NCBI GenBank assembly: GCA_965113315.1
Contig: OZ220368.1
Source of the DNA: Podarcis vaucheri
Lineage: Eukaryota
Length of the DNA: 64,000 bases
Strand: one strand, 5' to 3'
Positions within the stretch are counted from its first letter, which is position 1; each line of letters begins with the position of its first letter. Under the pieces are notes generated by a model that was given only the letters and a program-made list of their open reading frames with translations, searched no databases and was not told the origin of the DNA. Made by a program: the position numbers and the translations under genes. Shown piece by piece: positions 13,043 to 64,000 of the stretch.

Positions 13043-13097
13043 GTATCCTTTGTGATGCTTTAGTTTTTGTTTTCGCTCTACCACGACCTGGGAATCT

Positions 13098-13106
13098 AAG
13101 GTAAGC
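13098..13106 (+). promoter_or_regulatory. Candidate alternative U2-type 5' splice site AAG|GTAAGC (intron start 13101)
   Basis: Near-consensus major donor 58 nt downstream of the U12 donor. The exon frame is open up to it. Usage is not shown. Confidence 0.45.
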
Positions 13107-15172
13107 AAAGACTTGGAATAACAGCAGCTCAAAAAAAATACCTTCTTTGCTCAACCACACCGTTATATCATCTTTTCAAGGTTTCTCAGAAGTTTCTGTT
13201 AGGATATGGCTTGGATCCTGAAGTAATTTAGTATCAGAAAATTCATGGGCGGAATGTTTCTCATCCCCTCATTCTCCCTGCAGCATTTGTGTCACATTTG
13301 CCAGAGTATCTGGGAATGTGGGATGGGACATGAGAGAGCTGTTGGGTGAGAAGAGAACCAGGCTAAATTGGGTAGCTTTCTGCCTAATCTGGGGTTGAAC
13401 CCCCCATTTCGCCATCAGTCTTTTGTTCCCCATCACATGTTGTTCTGGGGGCCCTTCTATACTCTTGAGGTTTTATGAGGGGTGCAGGTGGCTGCAGGAT
13501 GGAGGAGGCAATAGCAAGATTTCCTTCCAAGAACTTCTTCAAGTAAAATAACCGTAGAATCAAAGACTATGTCTATATACCTGTCTTCTCCCCCCTCTTT
13601 TAGGGCTGTATATTGTATAACCTCATTAATGTGCACCTTTTCTGTTTATTCATACTATTCTATAATATTCCAAAGGTTTGCCAGAAGTTTCTATTAGCTT
13701 CTATATCTAGTGGCAAGTGTTAAATTTGTTCTGTCGTCAACCTCTTCTGAATCCTGGTCTAAGCTGTCAAAAGCAATTTTAGCCCCTGTGAGAAAATGCC
13801 AGTCACTATTCAAAAAAGACTGTGCTGTCCTTGATTATGCATTCCCTCCGTGATTTACATCTCCCACTTCCTCAGCTCCCTGCTAAAAGTCATCCTTCCT
13901 TTTTATTTCCCTTTTTGGGGAATGGGGGGGGGGGTTGGGGCTCTTTATATCTCTGCAGGATCAACTTGTCTTATGCAGATGGAGCTATATCACTCTTGCT
14001 TCATACATCATTGCCATCAGCCAGCCAGAGCAGAAAATAAGTTGTAGATAGCAGTGATTATCTTTGGTGATGAGGTACAGAAAAGCTGAGACTGCAGTTT
14101 GATTTCCATAAGCATGGCTGACCCTGCTGTGCTAAAAGTAGCACAAGCTGGTTTGAACAGGCAAACATGGAAAATGTTAGCATAACCTGTGTATTAATGT
14201 GGAAAATCTTACCCTGCTTGGATGTAACTTCCTCTCCTTCCTCCTTTGCGGATGTTAGATCTCTCAAAGAGGAGAAGCCCTACCTTTCCCTGAATTCCAT
14301 TGCACTCATTCCCTGCCACCTTCTGATGTTACATTTCACTTTCTGTGACCCTGGCCAAGAATGATTGTGGTTGGGAAGTTAGAAGCAGGGCTAGCAAGCT
14401 TCTTGAAAATCGTCACTGCAGAAGCTAAATTAATTGGCACAAGAATGATTAATTGAATACTATTTCATTATAATTGAAATACTGTTTCATTATAAATTCC
14501 ACGATCCTTTAGAGTGCCCAAGCTTGGATATAAAGAAATTTGTTGAAGATTATGTTGTGGAGCTATTGAGGCATGTTAGGAAAGCATAAAAAGACAGCCT
14601 TATCATGGGAATGGGGATAAGAGTTCCTGTCTCTGCCAGGGATTGTACTCAAAACACCAGCTTTTTATCTAAGAAATCACTCTTGTCAAATCATCCTAAT
14701 TTACCAGAGAGACTCGGTGATTGTGATTTCTAGTTAGCTCCATTTCTTAAGTAGAAGACAAAGCAGAGTTCTTTAATGTATTGTGTGGAGCACTGTTTTT
14801 CTAATTTATAAATGATCAAGCTTAAGAAGACAACACGTCAGCATTGAAAATCACCCTCTTTAATGTCAAGATGTGTCCTGGTAACCGACGTATTTGCAGC
14901 TAAAATGAAACCATGCTAGTTAGGTTGCAGCAGCTCTTTATGGGCATGTTTGCAAATTGGTAATTAAATAACATGGTTGAGGGTTTTTTTAATGACCTTG
15001 GAGTTCATTAATGACTGCAGGGAAAACATTTTTTTCTACTGAACTGTGTTGAGATGAACCCTTCTGTAGCTAATTGTACTTTTTAAGAGGAGAATTTAAA
15101 AGTGTAATTTGATTATGTTAATTCAAACAATATGTTAATTTTATTTATATGGCCCACAGTGAAATCTGTGGA

Positions 15173-15288
15173 TTGGATCCAGAACAAGTTGGTAGCACTT
15201 AGGTTCGATTGAAAGTAATATGAAATATTAGTTACGACTAATGGATGTCCAATTAATTTCAATAGGACCTAAGCTGGGCTGGATCCAA
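15173..15288. repeat. Short palindromic (hairpin) interspersed element
   Basis: Perfect terminal IR TTGGATCCAG/CTGGATCCAA and inner arms cttaggttcgattgaaa / tttcaataggacctaag. Confidence 0.7.
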
Positions 15289-15355
15289 CCCAATAGCATG
15301 TATTCTCCTGAAGATGCTGGAAGAGGAAGCAGTAACCATTTCTGGTTGCAGTGAA

Positions 15356-15489
15356 CAGGGATAGCCAATGTGATACCCTCCATGTGTTGTTGGACTAGAA
15401 TTCCCATCAGCCCCAGCATCTCCAATTATTAGGAATGATGGGAGTTGTAGTCCAGCGACATCTGGAAAGTACCACAGTGACTACACATG
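15356..15489. mobile_element. Palindromic ~130-bp hAT-type MITE
   Basis: cagggatagccaa...tgttgttggactagaattcccatca...tgatgggagttgtagtccagcgacatctgg. Confidence 0.7.
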
Positions 15490-16807
15490 TACTGACTATG
15501 GGCTACAAAACAGGACCACAATATTTATTAAGGCTGTGGTGTACATTTCTGCATTTCACCACTGAGGCTGAAAATAGCTTTCCTCTGTCTGATACTATTT
15601 CAGCGTATTTTTTTCCTGTTTAGGGTTTTCTTCACTTTCTTAAGAGAGATCTATCAGTCAAAAGTCATGTAGTAAGTGTGATGACATCCAGGTGCAATGT
15701 AGCCAATCAGATTTGACTGTGTGATGACATCACTTAAAGGAAACAAAGCCAACTAACAGAGCTTGCTGCATTAGGCACGTGAAGAATTCCAACCAGTTAT
15801 ATCATTCATTGCCCTCGCTCTGTATGGGCAAGCATTTTTACACTCCCTTTTATGTTGTCCTCTCAAAGTGCTAAAAGGGTAACTTTTGGTGCTGCTGGAA
15901 ACGTTGCAAAAATGCCTCACCTCTGATGCATGTATAACCCTTGTGCCACCCATGTGATGTGCTCATAAATTTCAATGGGGTTTCACTAGTGTCAGGGTGG
16001 AAGTTCAGCCCAGGTTGGGGGGTTTTGGGGGGGGGAGGAGGAGGAGAGGAATCCGCATGCAAAACAGGAGCTGAAAATGTCTCCTATGCTTTACATTTCA
16101 ATAAGAGCACAGAATAAATCAACTCTGTGCCCCCCCCCCCCGTTCACTGCTTTCAACTTCTTAGTTTGGTTATTTTAACAGAAATGGAAAATGGTTATGA
16201 TTTATGGTGTTTGTTCAGAGAAACAAAAAAATTACAAGGAGAAAAGTGTTTAAATGGGAAACATATTTAAATGGGAGCACCACAATTTTTCCCCCTTCTT
16301 TAAGCTTGTCCTTATTCCTTTCTCTTACATATAAGCAAATTGGAAGGAAGCGAAGCAGATGGAACTGATAGCTAAACTCTTGGCTGTTCAGAGAACCATA
16401 AAAATGCTATTAAACCTATAGTTGAAATAATTCTTTGGTAAATGTTAAATTCCTATTAGTTATACTTGCAAAACTTAGGTGCAACAGAAAGGGCAATACT
16501 AAGCTGAAAGGCAGTGGAGGCAATGAAGGGCTTAAAAACTATGAACAGTCTACAAAAATTACCTGAAGAGAGTAAAGTTGATAGCAACCATGTCAGATTG
16601 GAGATTTAGCTTGGCAACTGACTTGGTACCTGTGTGTTTGTATCTGTCTGAAGTACAAATAAGACGGGGCAATGAACACTTTGAATGGCCCCTGGGGCAT
16701 AGATTAATTACAAAAATCTGTGTATCACTGGGTTTTTTTGAGATGTTCTGCCATGTTTCATGTTTGTGAGTGTGGCTTCTAAACAGAAAGTATTAATACA
16801 CCAGGTG

Positions 16808-16810
<3 letters not shown>

Positions 16811-16840
<30 letters not shown>
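16811..16840. repeat. (GT)15 microsatellite
   Basis: Direct reading. Confidence 0.96.
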
Positions 16841-16843
<3 letters not shown>

Positions 16844-17268
16844 GACTGCTCAGATTAAAGGATAATATAGGTACAAACAAATGCATGTATGGTGCATATT
16901 GCTTAATTTAAAATAAGATTTCTTTCTATTACCTGAATAGAAGTTCTGAGAATGTCTTCTCTAGAGCTGCCATGTTGCTGGTCTTCAAACTGAATGCATT
17001 TTTAACTTCACATCCCACCTTGATGTCGAATCTTATATGTGCGTATGGCACAATGAATGCGCTAAACATGTTGGACCTCATACATTTGCTTCCTCCTTGG
17101 TTGGCCTTGCCTCCACAAAACTGACCTAACATCCACACATCCCTGATCTTTCCTACCCAATTGTGTGGGATAATTATTGCATATTATTGGGCTGGACTTT
17201 ATGGGTTGAATCCAACTAAGTCAGGCTCAGAGCAAACCCACTGAAATAAATGAAAGCAAGTAGTTTAA

Positions 17269-17472
17269 ATTCCTTCCAGTAGCACCTTAGAGACCAACTA
17301 AGTTAGTTATTGGTATGAGCTTTGTTGTGCATGCATAGGTATCTGAAGAAGTGTGTATGCACACGAAAGCTCATACCAATAACTAACTTAGTTGGTCTCT
17401 AAGGTGCTATTGGAAGGAATTTTTTTAGTTTGTTTCGACTACAGCAGACCAACACGCCTACCTACCTGTAAC
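17269..17472 (+). mobile_element. Penelope-like element terminal repeat (pLTR) fragment with inverted 5' duplication (fold-back)
   Basis: 17267-17337 is an inverted copy of about 17352-17422. Sequence matches the 3' end of the GIY-YIG element at 40894-41533. 8-bp TSD TAGTTTAA at 17261-17268 and 17473-17480. Confidence 0.9.
17338..17377 (+). ncRNA. Minimal type I hammerhead ribozyme motif (Penelope-type, dimer-dependent)
   Basis: GGUAU-CUGAAGA-A-GUGUG-UAUG-CACAC-GAA-AGCU-C^AUACC: 5-bp stem I, intact core, stem II and palindromic AGCU helix III. Predicted cleavage after 17372. Confidence 0.8.
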
Positions 17473-17667
17473 TAGTTTAAGTTCATTTCAGTGATTTTAG
17501 TGGTTCTATTCTAACACTGCTGGGTACAGCCCTGTATACACACATGTACCACTTACAGATTATGCAGAGCAAGGCAGAAGCTGACCATGTTCCTGATTTT
17601 ACAGTCTTCTGTTTGAAAGGCTATCGGAAGACAGCCCTCTGTTTGAAGATGTGTCCAGTCTAAGAGT

Positions 17668-17776
17668 AGTATTCAACTAAGACCACTCAGAGATGACTCA
17701 CTGAAATTAATGAGCCTAAGTTAGTCAAGCCTGTTCCCTTCAGTGAGTCTACTCTGAGTTAGACTAGCATTGGATG
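17668..17776. repeat. Short palindromic interspersed element
   Basis: Arms actcagagatgactcactgaa (17685-17705) and ttcagtgagtctactctgagt (17739-17759), 19/21 complementary. Confidence 0.7.
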
Positions 17777-18427
17777 TGGTGATGCACATCCTCCTTTTCA
17801 GCAATATGTGAAGACAGGTTTCTGCTGTTCCACCATGCACTGCCATACCCTTTTCCCTTGCCTTCTCCATTAGTGACATTTGTTTTAACTCAGAACTCAG
17901 CTCCCTGGCCCCTGCCTCCTCCCAAGTTCTTTTTCTTCACATTCCAATGTGCTTGGTATCAAGAGGTAGATTTTTTTTAAAAAAGTATGCTCCTTTATAA
18001 TGAGAAAATGAAAATGCTAGTTGCATATCTTCTGCCAGTTCTCTTCTGGAAAAAAGTAAGTGTCAGCAGGAATCTAGTTATCAATTAATTGCAGCCAAAG
18101 CAAATGCTACAGTACACTACTAGCTTCCACATGCACCATTTGCCAAGTTTATAATAGTATCAGCCTAGCAAGCCATTAGTAAGATCCTGGTCCTCGGTAC
18201 CATCTGAGAAATGCTGCTTTATCGCCACACTAAAACAAAAGCTATTTTCAATTATTGCACACATACTTCCTCACTCCATATAAGTTCCTGTTTGCCTGCA
18301 ATAAGCTTACAAGTTCACTGTGCTGTATTGTGCTTCTAGACTTCTTGCAGGAATGTCTCTGGGAAATTCCTTTTCTAGCCAGAGATTCAATGGGGCTCTT
18401 TACAATAGCAGTGGAGCTTCTACGTTT

Positions 18428-18580
18428 CATAGAATTGAAGAGTTGGAAGGGACCCTGAGGATCAGCTGGTCCAACCCCTGGCAATATAGGAATTGCAACT
18501 AAATCATACATGATAGATTACCATCCAACCTCTACTTAAAAACTTCCAAGAAAGGAGAGTCCACACAGTACTCCTGGTGT
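18428..18580 (-). mobile_element. CR1 LINE 3' end
   Basis: catagaattgaagagttggaagggacc...gtccaacccctg...ccatccaacctctacttaaaaacttcca is the reverse complement of the CR1 3' terminus. Confidence 0.7.
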
Positions 18581-18600
18581 GGTCTGACCAAGGCACAATA

Positions 18601-18602
<2 letters not shown>

Positions 18603-18646
<44 letters not shown>
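18603..18646. repeat. (TG)22 microsatellite
   Basis: Direct reading. Confidence 0.97.
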
Positions 18647-18651
<5 letters not shown>

Positions 18652-19019
18652 CAGTCATCAGACCCTATCTCATATATCCCAATGCCACAAACGGTATACA
18701 GGGAAGCCAGAGAAATTGTTTTGATGGGCAATGCAAGGAGGCAAAGAAAGATCTTCTAAGAGTTATTAGGATTTTTTTTTTTTGAGGGGGGGGGACCCTC
18801 TGTAATTAATAAGGGGGATATAAGTAGGATTAGAGTAACATATAAGAAAATCCTTAAGAATAAAATAGCGAATGTTGTGAAATGACAGTGGCAAGAACTA
18901 GGGCTGGCGGTGTCTGAGGAAAAAAAAGGGAAGATAAATTCTGGGACCTGGCAGCTTGGAGCATGAACAAAACAAGAGCAACATTAGATGCCACCATATT
19001 GGCGCAAAGCTGAGTGGAA

Positions 19020-19262
19020 TATAATAATTAATAATTATTAATTATAAGAATTTTCACCTTGCCCAGCTGACTGGGTTGACCCAGCTTCCAGCATATATAA
19101 AAACATAATAAATCCTTATACCTTAAACACTTCCCTATACAGGATTGCCTTCAGATGTTTCCTAAATGTTACATAATTACTCATCTCCTTAATATTGGAT
19201 GAGAGGGCATTCCACAGGGTGGGTGTCACTACCAAGAAGGCCCCCTGTCTGATTCCCTGTAG
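19020..19262 (-). mobile_element. L2 LINE 3' fragment
   Basis: gccttcagatgtttcctaaa...gagggcattccacagggtgggtgtcactaccaagaaggcc is the reverse complement of the L2 end (AFxVxxPTLWNALxS), preceded by an AAT-rich tail. Confidence 0.65.
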
Positions 19263-19962
19263 TAGTAATAATAATAAGGACAACCAGCAGCTGTCGAAGT
19301 GACCACTGATTGGTCAAAACTACTGGAATGGTAGTATCCCCTATGGCATCCCCTACAGAAATAAAATCTCTCATAGACTACTACATCTCACCATTTTGAA
19401 TGCTTGGTAATCTGCTCTAGGAAGGCAGCATATTATTTATGCCATTCAAATTCCAGAGACCATGGGAAGCCTGCATGCCTATTTTGTATTTATGTCACAA
19501 GAGAATGCTGGCAATATTGATTTAATTTAGCAATAATACTCTCATTTTTTGCTTTTGCCTTTGTACTCTCTAGAGACTTTAATTAACGACAATGCACAGC
19601 ATCCTGCTAGGTACGGATTTTTTTCTCCCTGCCCTACATTTTTAAAAAAGTGTCTGGAGAAGCTAAGAAACAAATTGAATCCACCTTTAGTATAGCAAAC
19701 AAAGTTCCAGTGAATTCAGCAAACCTGGCATACTTTCCTGTTGCTGAACAGCCCTAAGAGCAGGACCTTTATTACAGGCATCTTTGTTTCTGTGTTAAAT
19801 GTAGTTTGTTTTTTTACTTTGGCTGCCATGTACAAAATGGCATGATTTGTCCTAAGGAGTAAAATCTAGCCCTCCTCATAAACAATGAACACCCACTCTT
19901 CAAATCTTATTTAAGCAGTTTCTAAGATAGCACAGGTCACCACCACCACCACCACTACTACT

Positions 19963-20101
19963 CAAAAGCTATTTTTTCTAGAAAAAGAGGTGCCAGAACT
20001 CACCACGAACACCTCCCTTGTTCTCTTACAATGGCAATGGCACCCACCTGAGAGGTGCTGAAACTGAGTTCCAGTGAGTTCTGGCTTAAAAAAAAGCCCT
20101 G
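19963..20101. mobile_element. hAT-like MITE (same family as 59310-59452)
   Basis: Right end aaaaaaagccctg; degenerate left end gctattttttctagaaaaagaggtgccag. No TSD seen. Confidence 0.55.
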
Positions 20102-20865
20102 GCAGTGACAGATCTTGGATTTGGGTGTGTGTATGGAAATGAATGCCCATTGTTTACAATTCCCTGGTCCTTGTATCTGGGACATTGTTGTGGCACCATC
20201 CTCAGGCATAATTAGGAGAACAGTACCAGCCTTTCTCAAGAGTTCTCCGTGTGGTGGTAGTGCTGCTGCCAAATATGTTTTGGGAACAGGAAAGAGGCTG
20301 TGCGTGTGTTGTCTTACAAGCAGTCTCATTCCTGTTGATGTCTGCAGGACCATGTTGAAGCTTAAAATTTGGAATGGACTTAGAAATGAGCTATTTTTCC
20401 AAGAGGTGTTGTTTTTTTTAACACTGTTACTTTAGATGACCCCATTCTGCATTGCAACTGCGGCGTCAGCTATCCATATTCATTTGTGTTGCTGCTGCTT
20501 TTATATTAACAAATTCTGTGCTCAGCTCGCTTTACCAATAATTTAAGTGGAACTATCTTCCGGGGTTGATCATTTCTTCACATGTAAGAGATCTCCACAC
20601 TAGCGCTACTTTATTCAATCGCTTGCCAGGTGTCCTGCATATGTCTGCAGAGTTAAAATGGACATGTGCGGGATATGTGGCAAGAGATGACTCAGGCCAA
20701 TGGAATATGCTTGTGTGGGACCCTACCATTTTAAAAGACTAAGGAGACAGCCACCTATGTGATGAGAGCATGATTTAAGATTAACAGTAAGCCTTATGTG
20801 GGTGCAGGAAGCAAACAACTGAGAACACTGGAGAGGGGTATATCCAAAGATGAATGTGAGATGCT

Positions 20866-20890
20866 GAAGAAGAAGAAGAAGAAGAAGAAG

Positions 20891-20922
<32 letters not shown>

Positions 20923-20943
20923 GTAGTAGTAGTAGTAGTAGTA
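20866..20943. repeat. Compound microsatellite (GAA)18(GTA)8
   Basis: Direct reading; consistent with the F18/Y8 runs in the ORF track. Confidence 0.97.
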
Positions 20944-21008
20944 GTGCAGGATCTGTCTATCATTGCTCCATCTCATACTTGTCACCAACCAGAACTCATG
21001 GTATCATT

Positions 21009-21982: not shown

Positions 21983-23052
21983 AAATGAATGAATCTTTAT
22001 TTGCATCAGCCACCGGCCATAGCAATAAAACAACAATACAATATACAAAGAATAAAGATAAAAAGTCAATTATATAAATACATTTTGGGGTTTTGAATCT
22101 ATAGTCAAATAGTGGATCTTATTCTAATTGCCCCGGCTAAAAACCCTGCAATCTTTGCTGTCACCTGCTCATCTTGATCTGCCAAAAGAAAGGACACTGT
22201 GACAGTGGCTGGGTGACCCGGAATGGACAATAAAAGAGGGATGATAACCTCATTCCTCGAGTCTTTATAAAGAGTGCAAGCCAGAAGGGCATGCGCCACC
22301 AAGTTGAAATGGGTAGGTGGGAAATAGTTGTACCATGGACAAAATTTCCTTATTATGGCCAAGTTGTCCTCTCGCTTAATATCATTTAGGCGCTGACTAA
22401 TTAGACTGTTTGCTTTACTAAAATCCAGTGTGAGTAGCTGTTGTGGTGATAAACCACAAGAGTGAAGTTTTTGATAGACAATTTTAGTCCAGGCGCTCTT
22501 GTGACGATCTTGCAGCACTAGGGATATTAGACCAGGGGGATTTCAGTTTAGGCGAAGCCAATAGTTAAGTGTCCTATGCCATACCCATAATTCTGCCAAG
22601 GGAAGATTAGGTGCAATGAGATGGTACAGAGAAAATTTGCCTTAAGAACTTTGATTGGACAGCTTCCGTAGATCCAAGCTGAGTGCCTGTCCAGATCTGA
22701 GCCCCATATAATAACTGTGCCAGGGGTTTAGCTTGGAACACTTCTAGGGCTGATAGTGTATGTTTACCACCTTTTTGTGTAGAAAAAGTGTGTCAGAATT
22801 TTGATACTCTGGGAAGCTTTTTCTTTTGCACACTTCTGGTGTGCTCCCCATGACCCTGTAGACTGGAAAATAAGGCTGACCTGTTCAATGAGCTGGTTGT
22901 CCATGCTCCATCTATGGGCTCTATAGTTTCTTGAGAAAACCATGACTTGGGTTTTCTTGTAATTCACGGCCAGCTGTTCTCTCTGGCAATATCCTGAAAA
23001 TGCCCACATCAGTCTTTTTAGGCCTACTTTTGTTGGGGTAGAAAGATGGAAT
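21983..23052 (-). mobile_element. Degenerate non-LTR retrotransposon 3' part, RTE-X-like
   Basis: Minus ORF pieces GLKRLMWAFSGYCQREQLAVNYKKTQVMVF (RT end/thumb) and AKPLAQLLYGAQIW. 3' end AATAAAG(ATTC)n. TSD CTACTAGA(G/A)AT at 21972 and 23053. Clade is tentative. Confidence 0.75.
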
Positions 23053-24172
23053 CTACTAGAAATGTATTCCCAGTGGCTGGCACCAGTGTTATCCTTTTGT
23101 AGCCAGCTTTTCACACAAGGAGTCTTCCCGCTTTCCTCTGCTTGCTTAATACAATGCCCTCCCTTTCTTTTTGAGGCACAGTTCCTTGATTTGGTTCCAT
23201 TTTCAAAGCCTTCCTGGAAGACAGCATTTCTTCAGCCCAGGGTCAGGGCAAGTGTGAATCTTGTGAACCGTCAATATTTTTCTTGAGATGATAAATGGCC
23301 TGCCGATAAACGAAGGCAGCTGCCAGCTCTGTCTGAGAAACACACCTTCATCCCCAGTTTGTCCGTGCCTGGCTTATTTATGTGCCTGCTAACTTTAAAC
23401 ACTTACACCAGACAAACTTAAAGCAGCCTTCTGAGTTATTCCAAAACCGTAATCGCCGTCGTGTGTGAGGCAGATACCAGTCACAAGATTTCTGCAGCTC
23501 CAGTGCACACAGAAAGACTCATGCTCACATGGAGCTCTGTGAAATCAGGTAGTTGTGCAGGTAAGGGGCTGCAAATGGTGAGTTTATTTGGGAGGGGTTG
23601 GCTTTCAAGCCTCAAATGGGCATGATTTCACCATATAAAAATGTGTTCTGCTAGTAAAGTTTGTGGATATATCTGCAAAGGTGCCCTAAAGGTTTCCCTC
23701 TCCACACAGAGTGCAAGTAAAGAGAAAGATACCTAGAAAGGGCATCAGAAATAGTATGGGGAGTTAAGGAGCACCTATAGTGACAGGCCAGCCCAACTTG
23801 TGACCACCGAGCCAGATTTAGCTTCCCATCCCTGTATTGTGGCCTCCCATATATATGCATAGCAATCTCTGCCTTCTGTTTGGCAGTTCCAGGCAAAGTG
23901 CAAAAGAAATGATCCCCATAGGTTTCTCAAGCCCCGATGAACAGTCCTGTCCTGCATGGCTGGTGATCTGCACTTGGGTTGGTGGGTCATGCATGTCCGA
24001 TCTAGGAGACTGATTTGGACCCATGGGCTTTGGCGTTCTTGTGGCTTTTCATTTGAAAAGCAATGCCATGTGTCCTGCATCTGGTCAATACAATCTTCGT
24101 TTTTCCTTAAGTTTGCCCCTTTTGCAGTATATATGGGTTAGCCTATATGACTTTAAAAAAAGAAAAAGAAAA

Positions 24173-30300: not shown

Positions 30301-32944
30301 ATTAAAAGCCCCAAGACGTACTACTGTGTTTCACTGTGTTTAAAGAATATAATGAACCTGGTCCCTAATATTCTGTTAGTATTTTCCCTGTTAATCTACA
30401 GCACAAGTAATCATAGGCCTGCAACCAGGGCTTCCAGAAAACTCTTACTCTTAGGTGGCATTCCATCATATCTCCCTAAAACATACAGAGCAGCTCTTGT
30501 TTCAAAGCACCCCGGGCCCATTAAACTACCTGGAACTAATGCTGCTGCTACAGGGTGATTTGTTTCTGAGATTTCCTTCTGACAGGCCCCTAACTTGGAT
30601 CATATACTGGCTGATCTTGATGACCTTTGATGCAAAGACTCCAGATCTAAAGAGCAGTGAAAGCCCAGAGCGAAGTACACCTTCAGACTCCAGCCATAGA
30701 CAGTTAATGTTCCTTCTAGGAGGCCGTGAAATCAATCTTCCAGGTCAATATGTGGCCTGCCTCAGCATTATGTTTATGCATTTCTGACAGAGCTGGTTGC
30801 AGCCTCACTTGCATTGGTGAACCTTTCATTGTTTTAGCGGATTTCAGCTCATACCTCTTTGAACATTTCATTGCCAATATGCAGTCTTCTGTCACCCAGC
30901 TGCAACAGTGAAACCAACACTCTCTTCTATAGATTTCAAGGGCACAATGTTCTACTGCTTACTCTTAGACCAGGAAAGGAGAAGTAACTATCAATCTGTC
31001 TTTCTTCCCTGTAGTGCACTAGGAAATTATCACAGTGTTTGTTAAGCACTATGACTCAAATGAATCAGGAAGCTCAGCCCTTAACAGCCTGTGGCTTCAT
31101 CTGGTATCCTCTGCCTCACCCACAGTAGTGGTCCAGCCTTCATCATGTTCTCCACAACTGCTAGTCTGCTACACTACCTCTTATTAATGAGAAGCTGCAT
31201 CTGTGCCCCAGAGTTAAGGGGACAGTAGGATTCCAGGCATTTTGAACCACCAAAAGTTTGGTTGCTGGTCAGAACCAGAAATATAGACACTCATCAAGAT
31301 GTTGCTAATTGTCAACCACTGCATTTTGAGCTTCCAAATTGTTGAAAGCGAACGTAGTTATATCTTTTGTTATCTAGTGTTGCCGAGAACTCAGTTAAAC
31401 TGAAACTCTGCACTTGCCCGGATACTGTGTGTGCATTTTAGCTCTGCTCTGAGCAGCGCACCTGGTGCCATTGTGGTGAATCAGAGAAAGTGATTATTGT
31501 TCAGATTTAAGCACATCCCAGTTTAGCAGTAAGCTAAAGAAAGTCCCCAACAACAACAGTACTTGAGATTGAACTGTGCAAGGGTCTGAAGACATATGCT
31601 CAAGCCTAATTAGTTGCTGGAACTTTTGCCACTAAACTCTTATTCAATTATCAATTAACTCTAGGAAAGTAACAATAGGGCATCCTCCAGCAAGCATCTT
31701 CTCCCACTAATTGGATTATATTCCTTTGGAAACATCCCCACCTTTCCCAATAAGGGACATCTCAGTCACCTGGGCTGTGAGTTTTGATTAACCAGAGCTC
31801 TCTCATGACCTCCCTGCCTCTCTCTGGCAGGAAAATTGTATTGTGATGTTTATTGACAGCTATATCCTTGGCATTCAATGCCCCTTCCTTCCAGCCCTGT
31901 CCTTAATGAGATCACTCTTTGTGTTACAGCTATGCCCATCAAGAAGTTTCTTTCTTACAACTAACTGGTCACCTCTCATTCTCCACTATGACCAATCTTT
32001 CTCCACTGAAGCTGTCCCATGTCTCTCTCCTATTCATTCAGCTTTTTGAAATCCTCCAGGACGCTCTTCCACATCATCCAACTCTCTGACACCATGGATG
32101 CCATTGGGAGTCAGACTACTTCTTCAGCTTACCTGGATCACAAATCTTGCATCCTTTCTGCCTCCCTGCTTCTTAGCCATGCCCATTTCCTCCTCTTACA
32201 TTAGTCAGGACCCCTGCAGGAAGCACAAGCCAGTGTTACCCTGAAAGGAAGCCTTTTCATGGAACCTAGGGTAGGGAGAGGATTTATCTCAGTGGGAATT
32301 TATGAAACCTAGCCTACCTTGAGCCACCCCATCAACACTTGAGACTAGAAAATATTTTCTGCTTGTTTACTGAAAGCTCACAAGCTTGCTGTTAATGATG
32401 TCCAGGCGGATTAGCCTCAAATAATTTGTGCTTAGTTTTTGCCGAGAGTCCAAGACCCAGCCCTGACCTTGCACCCGCAGGTCACAGTAAAACTCTGAAA
32501 GCAATAAAACTCTTTACTCCCCCTTCCTTGGGACAGGTAATTATTAATGTCTTCCTACTACCTCTATCTTGCTCATTCCCATAATCTTGCTGCTCTAAAG
32601 TCCTGTGATTTGCATTTGAGCTTTCCCCATAGTACCTTTTCCCTGCCCATCTTTACCCGATATAAGGCAGTTTATCTGCTTCTTTTTAGCTTTGTAACAG
32701 GAAATGTTTGCACTTATGGTTTGGGCAATGTGAGTTTGAGTAGCTTCTGTGACAACATGGATAAGATACAGGTTTGTGAGTTGTATGTATGTATAGGAAC
32801 ATGAGCAAATCTAGTAGCACAAGTGTTTGCTTGAATCTTGTCATGATTTTGATCTTGTGCGTGTCATGAATTTGGTCCCAAAAGTTAAATACAATGTATA
32901 CAATTAATATTGTAATGATTTAAGAGGTGACTTTCAATGTGACT

Positions 32945-32951
<7 letters not shown>

Positions 32952-40893: not shown

Positions 40894-41533
40894 AGTTACA
40901 GATAGGTAGCCGTGTTGGTCTGCCATAGTCAAAATAAAAAAATTCCTTCCAGTAGCACCTTAAAGACCAGCTAAGTTAGTTCTTGGTATGAGCTTTCGTG
41001 TGCATGTACACTTCTTCAAATACACTGAAACAGAAGTTGCCAGATCCTTCTATATAGTGAGAAGGTGGGGAGGGGTATTACTCAGAAGGGTGGTGGGAAT
41101 GGGAGATTGGCAGATAGCTGAGATGAGCCTGTTGACGACTCTTAACGACTGCAATAGGTCTTACAGGAAAAGGCAAGGGGTGAGAAGGTGAAAAATGGCT
41201 TAGTCATGTATAATGAGATAAGAATCCAATGTCTTTGTTCATACCAGGTCTCTCCATGGTTTTAAGTTTGGTAATGAGTTGCAATTCAGCAGCTTCTCTT
41301 TCCAGTCTATTTCTGAAATTCCTTTGTAGTAAAACAGCTACTTTGAGATCTTGTATAGAATGTCCTGGGAGATTGAAGTGTTCTCCTACTGGTTTCTCTG
41401 TTTTGTGATTCTTGATGTCAGATTTATGTCCGTTTATTCTTTGGCGTAAGGTTTGGCCTGTTTGTCCAATATAGAGAGCTGAAGGACACTGTTGGCATTT
41501 GATGGCATACACAATGTTAGACGATGAGCAATT
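40894..41533 (-). mobile_element. Penelope-like element (probably Neptune-type) 3' part: GIY-YIG endonuclease, 3' UTR and pLTR
   Basis: Minus frame CSSSNIVYAIKCQQCPSALYIGQTGQTLRQRINGH...VGEHF...REAAE...GMN, stop at 41204-41206. Followed by the pLTR shared with 17269 and 21009. Confidence 0.93.
40986..41023 (-). ncRNA. Degenerate hammerhead motif (C3U core change, stem II mismatch)
   Basis: Minus strand GUAU-UUGAAGA-A-GUGUACAUGCACAC-GAAAGCUC-AUAC. Position 41019 differs from the other two copies. Confidence 0.65.
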
Positions 41534-42237
41534 ATTGGAGACAATACTTTTTAGGCTCCAATCCTTTACCCAGTTACCAGGGACTAAGACCCACTAAACT
41601 AAACAGGGCTTGTTTCTCAGTAGGCATGTCTAGGAGTCCAGATAGAGGTTGTAGTTATGCTATCCCTTGGAACATAATGTAGAGAAATTAAATTAGATAG
41701 ACTAAACATTTGGGGCTGGCTGTTGCAGTTGTTTTATCTTTCAGGCAGCTGAAATATATCCTGTGAGATAAGTTAAACTGTGTGACAGTGACTGATGCAA
41801 AATTGGCCAGTCATCTTCGTGAATGCGTAGGGATTTGTACTCTGGTTTTTCAGGTCAACCAATCACTTGTGGCTTTTTATATAGGAATACAAGCATTATC
41901 AATTTTCTTTCAAGTCACACTCCCTTGTGGCAGCCATTTTGTGACTGGAGCCCACAACATACTCTCAACATTTCAAATGTGCCCCTGGGCCCAAAAAGGT
42001 TGGCAGTCACTATTCTATCAAAGCTTATTTCTTTAGCCCAACACATTCCCAAACAAATACTGTTTCTTCTGAACTTGTGCTTCTATACATATTTGCCTCG
42101 TGCTACTTACATGCATGAGGCACTGAGGCATAGATCTGAAAGAGTTCTTTCATCTCTTACTATAGATAGCAGGAGCTCAGGGAACTCATACAGTATCTCT
42201 GCTTCTTCCCCCAAAGAGCTTGGAGCTGCTTAAATAT

Positions 42238-50858: not shown

Positions 50859-50859
50859 T

Positions 50860-54107: not shown

Positions 54108-54243
54108 AAGCCTCTTTCAACCTTGGTTCCCTATATGTTGTTGGACTGCAACTCCCATCACCCTGGAACACTGGTCCTACTAGCTAAGGATGATGGGAGT
54201 TGTATTCCAACAATAGCTGGGGACCCATGGTTGAAAAAGGCTG
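54108..54243. mobile_element. Palindromic ~130-bp hAT-type MITE
   Basis: Termini agcctctttcaacc / ggttgaaaaaggct; inner arms caactcccatca / tgatgggagttg. Confidence 0.75.
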
Positions 54244-55456: not shown

Positions 55457-55943
55457 AAAAGTAGAGACATCACCTTGCCAACAAAGGTGTGTATAGTAAA
55501 AGCTATGGTTTTCCCAGTGGTGATGTATGGAAGTGTGAGTTGGACCATAAAGAAGGCTGATTGCTGAAGAATTGATGCTTTTGAATTATGGTGCTGGAGG
55601 AGACTCCTGAGAGTCCCATGGACTGCAAGAAGATCAAACCTCTCCAGTCTGAAGGAAATCAGCCCTGGGTGCTCACTGGAAGGACAGATCGTGAAGCTGA
55701 GGCTCCAATACTTTGGCCACCTCATGAGAAGAGAAGACTCCCTGGAAAAGACCCTGATGTTGGGAAAGATGGAGGGCACAAGGAGAAGGGCACAACAGAG
55801 GACAAGATGGTTGGATAGTGTTCTTGGAGCTACCAGCATGAGTTTGACCAAACTGTGGGAGGCAGTGGAAGACAGGAGTGCCTGGCATGCTCTGGTCCAT
55901 GGGGTCACAAAGAGTCAGACACGACTAAACAACAACAACAACA
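55457..55943 (+). mobile_element. BovB LINE 3' fragment, 5'-truncated
   Basis: RDITLPTKVCIVKAMVFPVVMYGS...KLRLQYFGHLMRREDSLEKTLMLGKMEG; (CAA)n tail. TSD AGTACTGA at 55449-55456 and 55944-55951. Confidence 0.95.
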
Positions 55944-58224
55944 AGTACTGATACCTCACACCGGATTACTGTGCTGATTTTTTTTTTTTTGATACTGTTT
56001 TATTTAACTCGTTTATTTTAATAGGATTTTGTATAGTTTTAATACACTGGAAACCATTTTGGTATTTTCCTATAAATGAAAAGTGGTGTGGGGGTATATA
56101 TTTTCTCTCTCTCTCTCTTGTGTTATAGTCTGCCTCTCAACCCCATGCTCCATCTTTCCTTGTTATTGGGCACAATCAGAACTGCAATTATGCTTGGTCA
56201 ATATGTAGCTCTTCAGATTGCTTACTTGGCAGGTGCCCAGGATCTAAGCAGGGAATGGAAGCTGAGGCTGGGGAAATCTATGGGCCTTGAGGGATTGGAG
56301 CTGACAGTGTTACTTCTCCTCCTCCAGTCAATTATTTTCCTCCAGCCCCTTCTAATACTCCATTTTTTATAATAAATGATGGATTACGTACATAAAAGCT
56401 TTTTAGAAAAAACAGGGCTGTTGTACCAGGATTTTATCCTATGAAATTCTAATCTACGATAACTCATGAGGCAAGCATCCCTCAGCAGGTTCTTTCTCTC
56501 TTCTTAGCAACACAATGTATTGGGGGGGATGGGGACCAACACACCTGAGGACAAAAACAACACATAGAACCCACTGGTAGAGATGGTTACAGTGCTTTAA
56601 CATTTGCAGATGGATCTTAATCAAAACTAAATCATGCTGCAGTCTTATATACCAATATCTGTATGATCTATGAGGTGCATGGGTATCTTCAGGAATTTTT
56701 CCAGGGGTGGTCAAAGTAAAAACTTGGGGGGTAGGGCGAATTTCCCAGGGATGCGCAGGGTAGTTTTCATGGCCAGGAAGCTTCAGTCCCAGAGGCCAAA
56801 TGTGCCCCTTCAGGCCCCTACTTTTGCCTTTGGCTACAGCAAAGGCAATCAGGTCCCATAAACTTGCCCACAAGAAAATGTGGCCTTCAGACCCTCAGAG
56901 GACTAAACCCCCTTGGTTTAATCCTCTGACTTTTCCATTATTGCCTCTTCCTCATTTTGCTCGTCTCCTCTTTCCCCAATAACTCTACTCTGACTAACCT
57001 TGCAGATCACCCCATGTAATTTCTCCATTTGCCCTTTGCCCGTTCTAGTTTGAATCTCATGAATACTGCTGTCTATTCCCCTCTTCACCTTTAAAGGTGT
57101 CTAGAGTAATGTTTTAACCTACTACGGTCCTGATAAGCACCTAAAAACTTTGTTCGGGGCTATTAAATAGGGTTTGCCAAGTTCCCATTTGCTTCCTAAT
57201 TCACTGGAACTGTGTTGAGTAGAACTTTCAGCTGAATTCCAGCTATCCATTGCATACAGAAGCACTACATTTATGTAAGTGATTAAGATGCAATATCAGT
57301 TGTTGTTGTTTTTAAAAACTCTAAACTGGCACTATTACTGAGATGCCTGAATGCAACTAATGTTCCTAAAAAACGCTGAACTCCCTCAGATAAAAGATGC
57401 AGCACCTTAAATTAGGCTGAAAAATCCTGACCTCTGCAAACCTTGTTTTCATCCCCCTCCTCACATACATTGATGCTATATGAATATCACTAGATCTCAT
57501 TCAGATGCAACGTATGGTGCTGTGGACTGAAACAGCTCTCTGATTGTAATTAATCCCCAGAACAATTCCTTGCTCCCATTAAATATTAGCAGACATCATA
57601 GATAACCAAGGAGGAGAGATAACATGAATGTTGTGAAGGAGAGAACAGTAATGCTGGTAGGTTCTCCCACATTTTAATTTTGACCTTCCCTTGAAAAATA
57701 AAGTTTCCTTAGTCCCCCTTCCCTTTGGCCCCTATTTGCAGCCAGAGAATTACCAGAGCTTCTGCCTCTTTGAGTTATTTTCTTCTCACTGATAAAACCT
57801 TAAATCTTTTTAAAAGACTGCTTGTTTTAATTGAAAAATTTCAATCAATCTACAACCCCCCATCCTAAATAGCCCCACATGCAGTAAATAATCCGTAGTG
57901 AGTCTTTCTGCAGTAAAGAAATAAATAATTCTGAATCTGCTGTATCCTACTTGATCTCCAAGCTTTAAATCACTGTGGTTTGCACTGAGCTCAGCCAAAA
58001 TACTAAACACACTGGAGCATGACTATTACTTAGGGACTGCAAGTCTTTTTTTAAAGGTACAGCATCAGAGGCTGTCAACCTTTCCCCCCAGGGGAGCTCT
58101 ATCATGATGGAGCCTGCTGGTTCTGTGCAAGCAAATTGGCTTCCATGCCACTTCATCTGCTCTTAACGTTAGGGGTGAAGAAAATGCTTTAGACATAAGA
58201 ACAGGTGGGCTGTAGAGCCAATAC

Positions 58225-58383
58225 CTCAGGGAAGTTGCAGAACAGCCTTCCCAAAAGGTCTCTAAGAAGAGAATGGATGGCTGTTAATCAGGTATTGTAC
58301 AGTATAAGGCTGGGAATCCTGATTTGGCAGGGGGTCAAACGGGATAAGTTATAGGAGCCCTTCCCTTGTTGTGATTGCATGAC
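58225..58383 (+). mobile_element. Old CR1 3' end
   Basis: ccttccc.aaaggtctctaagaagagaatggatggc...tcctg..ttggcaggggg...cccttcc...tgtgattgcatga. Confidence 0.45.
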
Positions 58384-58687
58384 AGCAATATGCAACATCC
58401 AACGAGAAGACTAAAAACCTTTCTACTTAATTCAGCCCAGGTCCTTGGACATCAGATTTCCTTACTCTTTTCCAGTAAATCTGATCCATTTCAATTTGGT
58501 GTGCCAAGTAGTGTTTACTAAGGTAATTCCTCTCGTTTCTTTGTGATGCATTGTACCAGGCAAGACATTTGAACATTTCCCTTGGTTTGCATGGATTGTT
58601 GGTATTTGTTTCTTCTCTGAGCAGAGTCTGGTTGCATGAGGCCACACCCAAACTGGCATGTGCAATATGAGTTCTGCTTAAGATAAT

Positions 58688-58925
58688 ATCCAAGTCCCTC
58701 ATCCTGTCAGTGCAAGGATTTCCACATGTGCATTAGGGCTCCCCCTCCCCCACCGCATGTGACCTGCATTCTCTCTATATCTGTTCTGGAGCATTGGAGA
58801 AAACCCCATAACAGATTTAGGGGATGGATGGGGAGAGGAGACAGAATGGGGGGGGGGTCCCATGGTGCAAGTGGAAATCCTTGCGCTGACAGGAGGCTTA
58901 CTTAACGCCTCACTGGATACAAGCC
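58688..58925. mobile_element. Fold-back (MITE-like) element
   Basis: Arms tcctgtcagtgcaaggatttccac (58702-58725) and gtggaaatccttgcgctgacagga (58871-58894), 23/24 complementary, with further inner pairing. Confidence 0.75.
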
Positions 58926-59309
58926 TAAGTGTGCCATTTCCGTGATTTGCACTGCACATGTTGGACCAGATTACCATTGGCCAGGCTGTGGTAGCTAATT
59001 TTAGTCGCTTAGTGGACACACACAACTGAGAGTAAATCATATTAAATTCAATGAGACTTTCTTCTAAACAGGTACAGTATGTATAGGAATGTGCTGTAAA
59101 GGGATTCATTTCTGATTCAGCTTGCAGACAGGTAGTTGGAAAGCAGTCTGTGCCATCATCTTGAAAGAACATAATTTTTGAAGTACAATTTATAACGCTT
59201 TAAAATACGTTGTGGGAACAGCTTATATTCTTTTAGAAAGAATCTGTATTAAATCACTGGGCAGTGAATTGTATCTCCTTTCACATAGATATAGAGCTAT
59301 TGATGCTGG

Positions 59310-59452
59310 CAGTGCTTTTTCTGGGGGGTCCTCAAAGGTACGCAGTACTGGCACCTTCATACCCCCCCACCCATGTTAAAAGTGTGTCACTTCCTATAAC
59401 AACTTCATGGTGCGTACTGGCACCTTTTTTCTAAAAAGGAGAGAAAGCACTT
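59310..59452. mobile_element. hAT-like MITE
   Basis: TIR cagtgctttt / aaagcactt; degenerate 8-bp TSD gatgctgg / gatgttgc; internal gtactggcacctt repeat. Confidence 0.6.
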
Positions 59453-59619
59453 GATGTTGCTGAGTTTCTTTGCTTGCTAATGTATATGCTGAGAAGAAGA
59501 ATAAAGTACAGTCTTTCTTGGATTGCACCACTGCAGACTACAGGAGCAGGACCACATGTTTGAACACAGTCCACTATTGAAAATAAACAAGCTATATCCG
59601 GACGCTTCTGTCATTGTCC

Positions 59620-59908
59620 GTATCAGTTGCAAATTTCCTTTCTTTAAAGGGTCATTGTGAAAATTCATTAGCATTTATGTAATGCATTGATGTTGTTTTC
59701 ACAAATCTATGCATTTTGATGCACACTTTACTCAAATAGATGCATTTTTTGTACACATTGTCTGGAGAGCTGCATTGCAAAATTCAGAGAAGTGCAAATT
59801 TCAAAGGATAGCTGTCCTCCAGTTCACTTTTTGCTTCAGGCAGAGCAAATTACGGTAGGCAGGTTCACCTTCAAATGTGAACTCAACCAATTTTGTCCCC
59901 CATCCCTA
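59620..59908. mobile_element. AT-rich DNA-transposon-like repeat fragment (hAT-like end ccccatcccta)
   Basis: Repeated atgcatttt motifs and gcattgcaaaattcagagaagtgcaaatttc, recognised from memory as a common lizard repeat. Confidence 0.4.
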
Positions 59909-60236
59909 AAAACAACTATTTGCAAAGAGAAAATTAACACTACACAGAGAAGGCTAAGCTCATTCACAACATGCAGCTTTTCTACATGCAAGTATGTTGG
60001 GAGGTATTTATATATACATTCTCATGATTCTTTTAAGCATGCAACTCAGCCCAAAATCTCATATGGAGTGTCCAACCTGCAACCCACTACAACAGACTTA
60101 TGGTAACTGAATGCTGGTATTTCTATTATCCTGTTTTTAAAAATCCATGTACACAGAAAACTAGCACATTAGGAAGTTGACTAGCTTGGACCATTCTCTT
60201 TGATATTCTAATTTTCTACATGCATTCCCAAGTGTA

Positions 60237-60606
60237 AGGTAAAGGTAAAGGTAAAGGTACCCCTGCCCGAACGGGCCAGTCTTGACAGACTCTGGGGTTT
60301 GTGCGCCCATCTCACATCTATTGGCCGGGGGCCAGCGCTGTCCGAAGACACTTCCGGGTCACGTGGCCAGCGTGACAACGCTGCTCTGGCGAGCCAGAGC
60401 CGCACACGGAACGCCGTTTACCTTCCTGCTGGTAAGCGGTACCTATTTATCTACTTGCCCCCGGGGGTGCTTTCGAACTGCTAGGTGGGCAGGCGCTGGG
60501 ACCGAGCAGCGGGAGCGCACCCCGCCGCGGGGATTCGAACCGCCGACCTTTCGATCGGCAAGCCCTAGGCGCTGAGGCTTTAGCCCACAGCGCCACCCGC
60601 GTCCCT
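60237..60606 (-). mobile_element. Full-length young Sauria SINE (Squam1)
   Basis: Minus strand starts gggacgcgggtggcgctgtgg (A box), B box GGTTCGAATCC (60531-60541), (ACCTTT)n tail. 13-bp TSD ATTCCCAAGTGTA at 60224-60236 and 60607-60619. CpG-rich. Confidence 0.95.
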
Positions 60607-62906
60607 ATTCCCAAGTGTAGGTGACCATTAAAGGGGGGGGTTGCATTTTGAAGCTGAGAAAATATTCAGCCAGATAGTGGGGAGAATTGTTTGGTTTGCT
60701 AGATGGGGTGTGTGAGAGGAGAGAATGATTTATAATGCTCATTTAGTGTAACTGTGATGAAAGAGATGTACAAGACAGAGTTTCAACTCAGGAAAAGCTT
60801 CCATAGTCTTGAACATCAGTACCCACACACCTAAGGACCTACTTCTTAATGAAACCGACAAAAATATATTCCTAGGCCATAGTTACATGAAAGAGAGGAA
60901 ATTCTCTTCTTGATAAATGCCGCAATTTCTGTAATGGAAAACTGACTTTCTAGCAAAGTTGGCATACTCAGCAGAGCTGTATCTTGTTGTTGGCTTTTTC
61001 CTCTGTATGCATCTCCCTCCCTCTTCCTCCTCTTTTTTCATAATTTAACTGCTTGCATAAAACAAAGAAGCACACAGGTCTGTCAAATGATACCTCCAGG
61101 CTAGAAGGTCATAGTTCTTAATCCTCTTAGGGGGATAGACTTGGATGAGTTCCATAACTAATAACCCAGCCAATAGCATTTCAGGCTGATGGAGGTGCTG
61201 TCCTCTAGAAGAGACATAAAAGTTAAGATCCAATCCGTTTGATGGAGACCCCCAAAGGACTTATCAAATATTGAACGGCGCTGCTAACTGGCTTTGCCCT
61301 TGTCAAATCCTTATCGCGGCAGAAGCCTCACTCACTGTGGCATAGAAATGACACAACAGATCTTATTAAAATGAGATTGTGGCTTTGAAAGGAGTCTTAT
61401 TAATTCCAATAATTGCCACTGCTTTGCAAAACGCGGGGTGGGAAGTCAACCCACACTCTTGAAAGCAAAATGGTCCCACATTTTAAGAAGTAAAACAAGC
61501 GCAAGGATGGATCATAGTGCGACTGGTCTCTGCAGTGGCAACATTATTAAATGATCAGTGAGCTATTAAAGCTACAGTGCTTAGTATCTCCCCTAAAGAC
61601 TCATAGCGCTAACAGGTTTCCAAATTGAGGTTTTTATTGCTGGAAGAAGGCTCTGTGTGCAGTTCTTGAAGCTGCGATTACAGGGAATGGTTGTGAGCAG
61701 ACTGACACTAAACAGGAGCAACAAATCTTCTTGAGTGAAAACTGGCAATGGATGACTCCCCAAAGTGTTTCAATATGACAGCAAAGAGGACTATAGAAGT
61801 GGAAAGGATACTGCATAATAAGAAACTGAAACTAATCAGAAATATGGTGTTTTACTTGGATTTAAATAAAGAGCAAGGTTTTACGCGCCTTTATCTGACC
61901 AGTTGGGATGGGTAAAAATGGGTAATTGATAGCGTTACAGGAAATTTCACCCACCATTAACTTCAAATGATATCCTTTCCTAGGGGGCCAAGGTTTCTTA
62001 TATTCCTTCCAAAGGTATTGAAATGTAGCCACTAGCAGAGGAGAAACTGCTGCCACTTCTGTTTTTCCAAGAGCAGGTCTTTCACCATGTCATTTGGGCC
62101 AGAAAAGAGGAAGGAATACTAATCCAATAGCCATCACGAGGATGGTAATGACAGCAGGAACCAATGTTCTGGGGAACACATTTGGAAAATTGAAATCCAG
62201 GGAAGCAGCCATTGTTAATTCCATTGAAGTAAGCACTGCATTGGGTCAAGTAAGTTTTTTTTCTATCTCTCTCTCCTGTGGCATAATTTTATAGATTGCA
62301 AATGCAGGATAGTGTAAGAGGAAAAACTGAAAATAAAAGTCAAGCAAAAGAAAGAAAAAGGAACCAGTTGAAGACATTGCTGCAATTATAGTGGACAAAG
62401 AGTCCCTGTACAGTGGATTTTAAGAACCAGCCCGCCTTTTTCAGCACCCTTATTTCGTTTGTTACCAGCTCAACTGATTAGAGGACAGAGACACTGGAGC
62501 GCATCTGAAGTTGAGATAAGAGAATCATTACAATACTAAGGGTGCAAAGCCTTTATCTCCTTTGCATGTGAGAGATGCAATTGTCTGCAAAGAGTGACTG
62601 AGAAACATCCCAAGATCAAGCTTTTTCAGACTACCAATGCAGCTTTCTGCAGGAGATCTATGAAGTACTAAACACTTGGAGCCAATGATAGATGAAACAA
62701 TTGACCTCTCATATGCACCTACATCAAATGTAGTTAAGCTGAAATCCAGAGAAAGAATAAATGAAACAGGTGCTGCACAGTGTATCTGCAGGACTTTAGA
62801 AAAGGTTTTGGTCACTGAGACTTGTGCTACATTAAGAAGCAGAGTAATAATAATAGTAATACCTTCTGAATGATATCATGAATGTTTTCTTTCTTTTTAA
62901 AAAACT

Positions 62907-62992
62907 TTCCCATCAGCCCCAGCAAGCATGTTCAAGGATGATGGAACTATAGCCTTGCAACATCTGGAGGGCCACAGGTTCTCTACTCCTGC
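62907..62992. mobile_element. Partial palindromic hAT-type MITE
   Basis: tcccatcagccccagc...gatgatggaact.tag...caacatctggagggccacaggttc.ctactcctg. Confidence 0.6.
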
Positions 62993-63245
62993 CTAGATCC
63001 TGGGTTAGGTCCCTCATGACAAACAGTGGTTGGTTCTGAGCTGACATCAAACATTACTTGAAGTGATTAGTGTCCTTGTTTTAAATGAAAGCTCAGTTAT
63101 TTTCAAGAGTGTGAAGTCTTGTTCTTCCAGATTTCCATGATGTGATTCCCCCACCTACAGTCAGAAGTGGTACAATCCAGACTCAGGTTTACCCACCTTG
63201 ATTCAAGGTGAAACCTGGCACATTCTTGCTAATAAAAGTTGATTC

Positions 63246-63248
<3 letters not shown>

Positions 63249-63293
<45 letters not shown>
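63249..63293. repeat. (AT)22 microsatellite
   Basis: Direct reading. Confidence 0.96.
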
Positions 63294-63295
<2 letters not shown>

Positions 63296-64000
63296 TATTT
63301 CTGCTACTTTGTCTCCCTTTGCCCCAGTTGAATAATAATCCTGCATAGGCTTCAGGGTCATTTCTACAATTAGACTGTAGCTCATTTACAAACCTCTTGG
63401 ATTAGTTTCTCTGTATAATACTTCCAGCTTTCAGCCACAGAGCTAAGACTTTACATGATTTCACATTAGTCATCTTCTCCATTTGAAGAAAAAATAATGA
63501 GCAGAGATATTTCCCCCCACAGAGTGTGAACTCTGCATCTTAAATTCATTTGTTTTGATATCCCTAATGTGAGTAGGCGGGTAATAACAAATGCTTCATT
63601 TAGAAGTTGGCATCTTTACATAAGATGCCTGGAAACCCTGAAATGTTATACTTCTGGAATTTCCCACTACTGGAAATTGCATCAGGTAATTACTGATAAC
63701 TGCATTTGTACAAGACACAAATAGATTTAAGTTTCAGAATGGACGAAAAGCTAATAATATAATGTATGTGTGCACAAAATGGAAGCGCATACAAAATCAT
63801 GGACAATCATTGGTGTTTGCTGGAGGGACAGGGTGTTTGGTTCAGTAGGTTATGTAAAGGTGATACATAATCAAGCTGTACGTAACATTCCCTTTCAGAA
63901 GTTGAGAATCCTCTTCAGAGTAGCCAAGTCACATGAATGTGCATGAGGTAATCCAAGTGGGAGCATACGTTACAATTTTAGCAACATATTATTTAGTTTG

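Follow-up and report, generated by a model that had tools for sequence, protein, structure and literature searches.

A long U12-type intron in the AGBL4/CCP6 gene of the lizard Podarcis vaucheri and its likely counterparts in human and mouse

The AGBL4 locus

A stretch of 64,000 nucleotides (nt) from the lizard Podarcis vaucheri (contig OZ220368.1 of assembly GCA_965113315.1; here, the window) carries two coding exons of AGBL4, the gene for the tubulin-trimming enzyme CCP6, followed by all but the last 176 nt of intron 11, a U12-type (minor-spliceosome) intron of 51,134 nt. An initial annotation, made from the letters of the window, had named this gene and had proposed that recognition of such an intron might limit the production of active CCP6. 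The window is G000:C25:52080001-52144000 of the 1.6-Gb genome (G000), and 120 kb was taken downstream of it (L002), in which L002:177 is G000:C25:52144177, or 64177 in extended window coordinates. The 184 kb examined around intron 11 contains no undetermined base (0 N).

The gene is the lizard AGBL4/CCP6. Protein comparison of the exon at 12880-13042 gave 437 matches; the 120 listed share 89-100% identity with it, and nearly all the named ones bear CCP6/AGBL4 or BEND5-overlap labels. Thirteen coding exons were mapped in the genome by tblastn against a lacertid lizard protein (P0005), which is 100% identical to the upstream exons in six of eight alignments; the remaining two (88% and 78%) extend into intron sequence. 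P0005 scores over the Pfam cut-off for both PF00246 and PF18027, giving the composition of CCP6: an N-terminal CCP domain and an M14 domain with HPGE and DIHAH motifs. The DIHAH motif in exon 10 presumably carries the third zinc ligand. The features around intron 11 are as follows.

106..258, + strand: AGBL4/CCP6 coding exon 10, KVTLEFYIDIHAHS...DFSF, with the DIHAH motif; placed by tblastn to CCP6 homologues
259, + strand: donor of exon 10, an ordinary GTAAGC
259..12879, + strand: intron 10, U2-type, 12,621 nt; acceptor ...TTTCTTACAG, 88% pyrimidine at -20..-4
12880..13042, + strand: coding exon 11, 163 nt, with the presumed catalytic Glu in YTLEVSF
12976..12978, + strand: codon GAA, encoding the presumed catalytic glutamate (E421 in P0005; E401 in mammalian homologues), assigned from fold position
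13043..13051, + strand: U12-type 5' splice site GTATCCTTT, T at -1; forms a duplex with the genome's own U11
13043..64000, + strand: in-window part of intron 11, GT-AG U12-type, phase 1; last 176 nt beyond the window (L002:1-176)
64158-64165 (L002:158-165), + strand: branch site TCCTTAAT, adenosines at -14 and -13
L002:174-176, + strand: acceptor CAG; the intron ends are GT...CAG
L002:177-273, + strand: exon 12, 97 nt, (Y)MKLGRNVARTFLDYYRL..., encoding the greater part of the predicted last helix
Between exon 12 and exon 13, + strand, downstream of the window: intron 12, U2-type, 4,949 nt
L002:5223 onward, + strand: last exon, exon 13

Elsewhere in the genome, two single-block CCP6-like matches of ~250 amino acids at 39-41% identity (G000:C1:86784454-86785227, + strand; G000:C29:41243154-41243942, - strand) are probably large exons of other CCP paralogues.

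Ends, phase, and class of intron 11

Intron 11 occupies 13043..64176 in extended coordinates and is a GT-AG U12-type intron. Exon 11 is translated as SSTSFN...YTLEVSF...PYTEEA with one T left over, and the boundary at 13042/13043 reads GAAGAAGCGT/GTATCCTTTG; the exon thus ends T/GTATCCTTT, the phase 1 U12 donor that the initial annotation had recognized. The leftover T and the AT at the start of exon 12 restore Tyr, the joined frame gives PYTEEAYMKLGRN as in homologues, and the joined frame of exons 11, 12, and 13 is open to the normal stop. The length exceeds 50 kb, as originally proposed, and the YMKLGRN-type exon, said to be missing from the window, begins 177 nt beyond its end, at 64177. 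No hidden CCP6 exon was found in 13100-64100 by tblastn with the 120 listed proteins. The single match at an E value of <=1e-3 was rejected as an exon, as it falls in the non-CCP6 tail of one gene model (P0050), in a repeat-like stretch near 23.2 kb.

The 5' splice site and branch site define U12-type introns, in which a polypyrimidine tract is absent and the distance from branch site to acceptor has an optimum of 11-13 nt, as described in PMC3584512. All of these properties are seen here. RTATCCTT lies exactly at the exon boundary, the ends are of the GT-AG type (the other admissible type being AT-AC), and the sequence before exon 12, TTCTCCTTAATTAGACACTCAG, holds a TCCTTRAC-type branch site, TCCTTAAT, whose last base is T as in the catalogued human site. 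The U12 branch site that the initial annotation had suggested looking for is therefore present, with its adenosines at the short distance of -14 and -13 and only 11 nt (TAGACACTCAG, ending in CAG) between it and exon 12. There is no distinct polypyrimidine tract: pyrimidines make up 65% of positions -20..-4, branch site included, versus 88% at the upstream U2 acceptor.

The donor 9-mer is little proof by itself, since RTATCCTTT occurs six times on both strands of the 64 kb, versus 1.6 expected; the site is taken as real because it stands at the exon end, has a branch-site partner, and leads to a joined frame in which Tyr is restored. Only one of 1805 YAG sites in intron 11 has TCCTTRAY at -25..-9, and that one is the true acceptor. 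Nothing that the initial annotation had named as a refutation was observed.

Minor spliceosome components in the genome

The genome was searched for U11 and U12 small nuclear RNA genes at the Rfam cut-off, and both components are present, as expected of a host that removes U12-type introns. Two matches were found for U12 (best, 146.7 bits) and two for U11 (best, 108.4 bits). The donor GTATCCTTT forms a 6-bp duplex with the 5' end of the best U11 copy (-5.3 kcal/mol), and the branch site forms a duplex with a bulged A with the best U12 copy (-7.1 kcal/mol).

G000:C29:42597806-42597955 and G000:C17:24850125-24850274: two full-length U12 copies
G000:C1:102921884-102922025: second U11 copy, degenerate, 5' end diverged

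Probable use of the acceptor in RNA

Sequencing runs of a relative (X1 and X12), whose RNA nature is the tool's guess, were used at the acceptor side. In each, one contig bridges the 4,949 nt of intron 12 and connects exon 12 with exon 13. The match on the exon 12 side comprises 96 letters, with 262 and 219 further unaligned letters upstream, and the bin depths (0.92 and 1.67) are consistent with a match start at L002:177 and not at 175, 176, or 178. The contigs from these two runs of a relative support use of the acceptor at L002:177. The raw-read runs X21 and X22 gave no depth on exon 12, and most of the signal in the region came from repeats. Two stretches of intron 12, L002:647-957 and 2125-2375, are high-copy repeats that are abundant in the sequencing runs compared.

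Presumed catalytic glutamate and predicted last helix

The exon 11 Glu is invariant in alignment A1. An AlphaFold2 model of P0005 was built from 54 sequences and has a mean predicted local distance difference test (pLDDT) score of 54, with ~90 for residues 441-460. In this model, the final helix spans residues 440-461, and Glu421 lies on strand 416-423, the last long strand to precede it; the residue is 40 positions before the domain end aligned to CPA 307. Residues 190-461 of the model superimpose on CPA 14-307 with Z 18.2 and a root mean square deviation (rmsd) of 3.6 over 242 aligned residues. The match to CCP5 (PDB 8v3m/8v3q), the nearest solved relative of CCP6 (M14D), is closer (Z 26.6, rmsd 3.1, 268 aligned). 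In the solved M14 domains, the part that corresponds to helix 440-461 is the domain end. A PDB sequence search returned no CCP6 chain, and the sequence alignments it gave ended before the Glu. The equivalent of CPA E270 is the essential catalytic residue of CCP1-3 in the accessible statements of PMC4230590, which do not include CCP6. The exon 11 Glu is plausibly this catalytic residue, placed by fold position rather than by residue alignment.

Helix 440-461 is split by intron 11 at Tyr444, and exon 12 encodes most of it. Read-through of intron 11 meets an early stop, as does skipping of exon 11, exon 12, or both. Removal of intron 11 is probably required for active CCP6, because this helix, predicted to be the last one in the carboxypeptidase domain, comes mostly from exon 12. 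The need for splicing at this point is probably the same as for most introns inside a domain.

Read-through peptides in other vertebrates

After the end of exon 11, 71 of the 120 listed homologues continue with YMK, 40 with C-I-L (39 by regular expression and P0104 by eye), and 9 with other residues. The named C-I-L homologues are from snakes, a monitor lizard, a skink, a crocodile, turtles, birds, mammals, and a caecilian. Such tails are what read-through of a conserved T/GTATCCT would give. The C-I-L records would then be gene models in which this conserved U12 donor was missed, as read from protein rather than DNA. On this reading, many public CCP6 models would be cut off at the U12 donor. 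Some of them might be real transcripts that terminate within the intron. One in three of the listed homologues reads through the donor, which suggests a reason for the truncation of CCP6 by gene predictors.

Removal of intron 11: routine or regulated

Very probably, intron 11 of the lizard AGBL4/CCP6 gene, with its U12-type ends, is removed routinely by the minor spliceosome and has a counterpart in human and mouse. By the established mechanism of the class, the donor would be bound by base pairing with U11 and the branch site by base pairing with U12, and definition of the intron ends may be aided by contacts with the major spliceosome over the flanking exons, which are short (163 and 97 nt); cross-exon contacts between minor-intron ends and the major spliceosome are described in the part of PMC8034651 available. 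The length of the intron would reflect general intron expansion in a gene of ~0.73 Mb rather than a special device. Failure of splicing would be predicted to remove the last helix of the carboxypeptidase domain, and splicing of intron 11 may accordingly be seen as a required step rather than a demonstrated control point.

Several points weigh against this explanation. No read across the junction of 13042 to 64177 was seen. The donor stretch 12600-13700 gave 0 records in all four runs compared with it (X5, X9, X23, and X24), an outcome that speaks neither for nor against the junction. Dependence on the minor spliceosome in the lizard is a property taken from the class. Duplex energy by itself cannot single out the branch site, as the true branch window ranks 64th of 1804 YAG windows by plain U12 duplex energy. 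The P0005 model is weak overall, with high scores at residues 441-460. Orthology with the human and mouse introns rests on site sequences, phase, and the one minor intron listed per gene rather than on a genome alignment.

In a regulated gate of the kind that the initial annotation had proposed, slow minor splicing over 51 kb would limit active CCP6, and tubulin deglutamylation in testis, brain, and cilia would be adjusted in this way. This is unlikely. In its favor, the slower pace of U12-type splicing has been put forward as rate limiting (PMC3584512), exon 12 encodes most of helix 440-461, early stops follow read-through or skipping, and mouse Agbl4 expression is highest in testis (66) and cerebrum (6.1) (table in PMC6717393). 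Against this, AGBL4 is absent from file 4 of PMC6717393, which holds 150 minor introns retained in normal mouse tissues; this absence is weak evidence because the >95% coverage filter used there disfavors long introns. In that paper, retention is found among the shorter minor introns, although the same filter applies. AGBL4 is also absent from file 6 on alternative splicing in mouse and human, a file that names genes and includes the long EIF4G3 intron. Four upstream AGBL4 introns are 98-199 kb long, and intron 11 accounts for only 7% of the intron length. In the perturbation tables consulted, AGBL4 expression is about zero: the gene appears in the PMC8034651 supplement only in a patient-cell expression table (0-0.07), and its value is 0 transcripts per million in the cells compared in PMC9992838. 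The main text of PMC12956336, which names RNA-seq data from U11-knockout mouse testis (GSE294209), makes no mention of Agbl. If the gate existed, minor-spliceosome disorders with ciliary defects would be linked to tubulin glutamylation; such a link would be incremental because AGBL4 has already been listed among U12 ciliary genes (PMC9992838).

A second alternative concerns a site just inside the intron.

13101..13106, + strand: U2-like donor AAG/GTAAGC, strong, 58 nt into intron 11; candidate site

It is highly improbable that this donor competes with the U12 donor as a major-spliceosome bypass and joins exon 13 in frame, yielding CCP6 without the final helix. The frame is open up to the 13101 donor, the join to exon 13 is in frame to the normal stop, and among alternative events near minor introns, use of cryptic 5' and 3' sites is the most frequent (PMC6717393). 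No read supports the event, though, and an in-frame join has a prior of one in three. In the relative's contigs the match ends at L002:177, consistent with an upstream exon whose last base is not G; only a join of 13101 to exon 12 is thereby excluded, and only in those contigs. In other species, the read-through peptides become dissimilar shortly past C-I-L, with no conserved extension visible. Little credence can likewise be given to a switch in which low minor-spliceosome activity in testis or neurons lets the 13101 donor join the last exon and so sets the amount of active deglutamylase.

Stepwise removal of intron 11 through internal (recursive) U12-type sites is scarcely credible: the intron holds 11 further RTATCCT and 6 further TCCTTRAY motifs on the sense strand, one donor-like and one branch-like motif lying 38 nt apart near 31.9 kb, but none of its 51,134 nt forms an AG/RTATCC or AC/RTATCC junction, no internal branch-like motif is followed by YAG at the usual distance (near 31.9 kb, the A falls at about -24), and the two motifs of the 31.9-kb pair do not stand in the order that a recursive site requires. 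The candidate was rejected on the absence of A[GC]/RTATCC junctions, in a search confined to U12-type sites.

At 31862-31929, ATATCCTT and TCCTTAAT lie 38 nt apart with AC and CAG shortly after, making a 54-nt AT-AC look-alike. It is shorter than the shortest human minor intron noted in the published list (73 nt) and probably arose by chance.

Other contents of the window

The rest of the window consists of ordinary repeat remnants and microsatellites, and no structured RNA in it matched Rfam at the gathering score.

41204-41593, - strand: open frame with a GIY-YIG domain (Pfam PF01541, E 2.3e-06, over cut-off)
5816-6274, - strand, and 55568-55951, + strand: two near-identical open frames, no Pfam match
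22105-23390, - strand: remnant, no Pfam match

The GIY-YIG frame is presumably the remnant of a Penelope-like retroelement, the two near-identical frames resemble what we take to be 3' ends of an RTE/BovB-type long interspersed nuclear element (LINE), and the remnant at 22105-23390 is, we assume, LINE-like. A stretch at ~23.2-23.4 kb, beside the last of these, is matched by the tail of the yak gene model P0050, which suggests that this model took in a repeat.

Length and likely counterparts

The 12 introns of the lizard gene measure, in order, 7.4, 21.8, 128.4, 97.6, 104.1, 199.3, 28.8, 24.9, 46.1, 12.6, 51.1, and 4.9 kb. They total 727,263 nt, with a mean of 60.6 kb and a median of 37.4 kb. 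Intron 11 is the fifth longest and lies below the gene mean. In the human minor-intron sheet of PMC6717393, all 770 introns of which were gone through and counted by eye, 10 are longer than 51,134 nt and 11 are longer than that of human AGBL4. Intron 11 is therefore in the top 2% of its class by length and is no record, and of the description "giant" in the initial annotation, the part that stands is that the intron is long for a minor intron; it falls below the mean of its own gene, and its likely counterpart was already catalogued. Longer human U12-type introns occur in FHIT (522,707 nt), DIAPH2 (100,276 nt), SLC9A9 (94,503 nt), EIF4G3 (86,961 nt), STXBP5L (86,662 nt), KIAA1328 (73,635 nt), UBE2H (71,531 nt), and RALGAPA2 (60,680 nt). 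Cryptic-exon use is listed for the long EIF4G3 intron, whereas none is listed for AGBL4. The mean length of U12 introns tracks genome size (r 0.87), and a restriction on their size has been argued against (PMC7367187, accessible part).

The consultation of minor-intron catalogues that the initial annotation had recommended returned an AGBL4 entry. AGBL4 is listed as a minor-intron gene in human and mouse in the supplements of PMC6717393, with a human intron of 47,265 nt (5' splice site, CCTGTATCCTTA; branch point sequence, TGCTCCTTAATG) and a mouse intron of 39,043 nt. A human AGBL4 intron of the same 47,265-nt length appears in Table S3 of PMC6800510, in the part available, and AGBL4 is flagged isU12 in the accessible part of the PMC9992838 supplement. 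A search confined to main texts turned up no paper that connects AGBL4 to minor splicing.

The human (chr1:48539739-48587003) and mouse (chr4:111617283-111656325) introns (MIDB/PMC6717393) belong to the same gene as the lizard intron, with one minor intron listed per gene. Both have the donor GTATCCTT with T at -1, as in the lizard, and the human branch core CTCCTTAAT is also that of the lizard. The lizard intron is 8% longer than the human intron and 31% longer than the mouse intron, and position +9 of the donor is T in the lizard, A in human, and G in mouse. As judged from these sites, lizard intron 11 is likely the counterpart of the catalogued human and mouse AGBL4 minor intron. As a feature it is unremarkable, being already known from those two species, and the result is a lizard confirmation, otherwise of little significance, of a minor intron catalogued in human and mouse at similar length.

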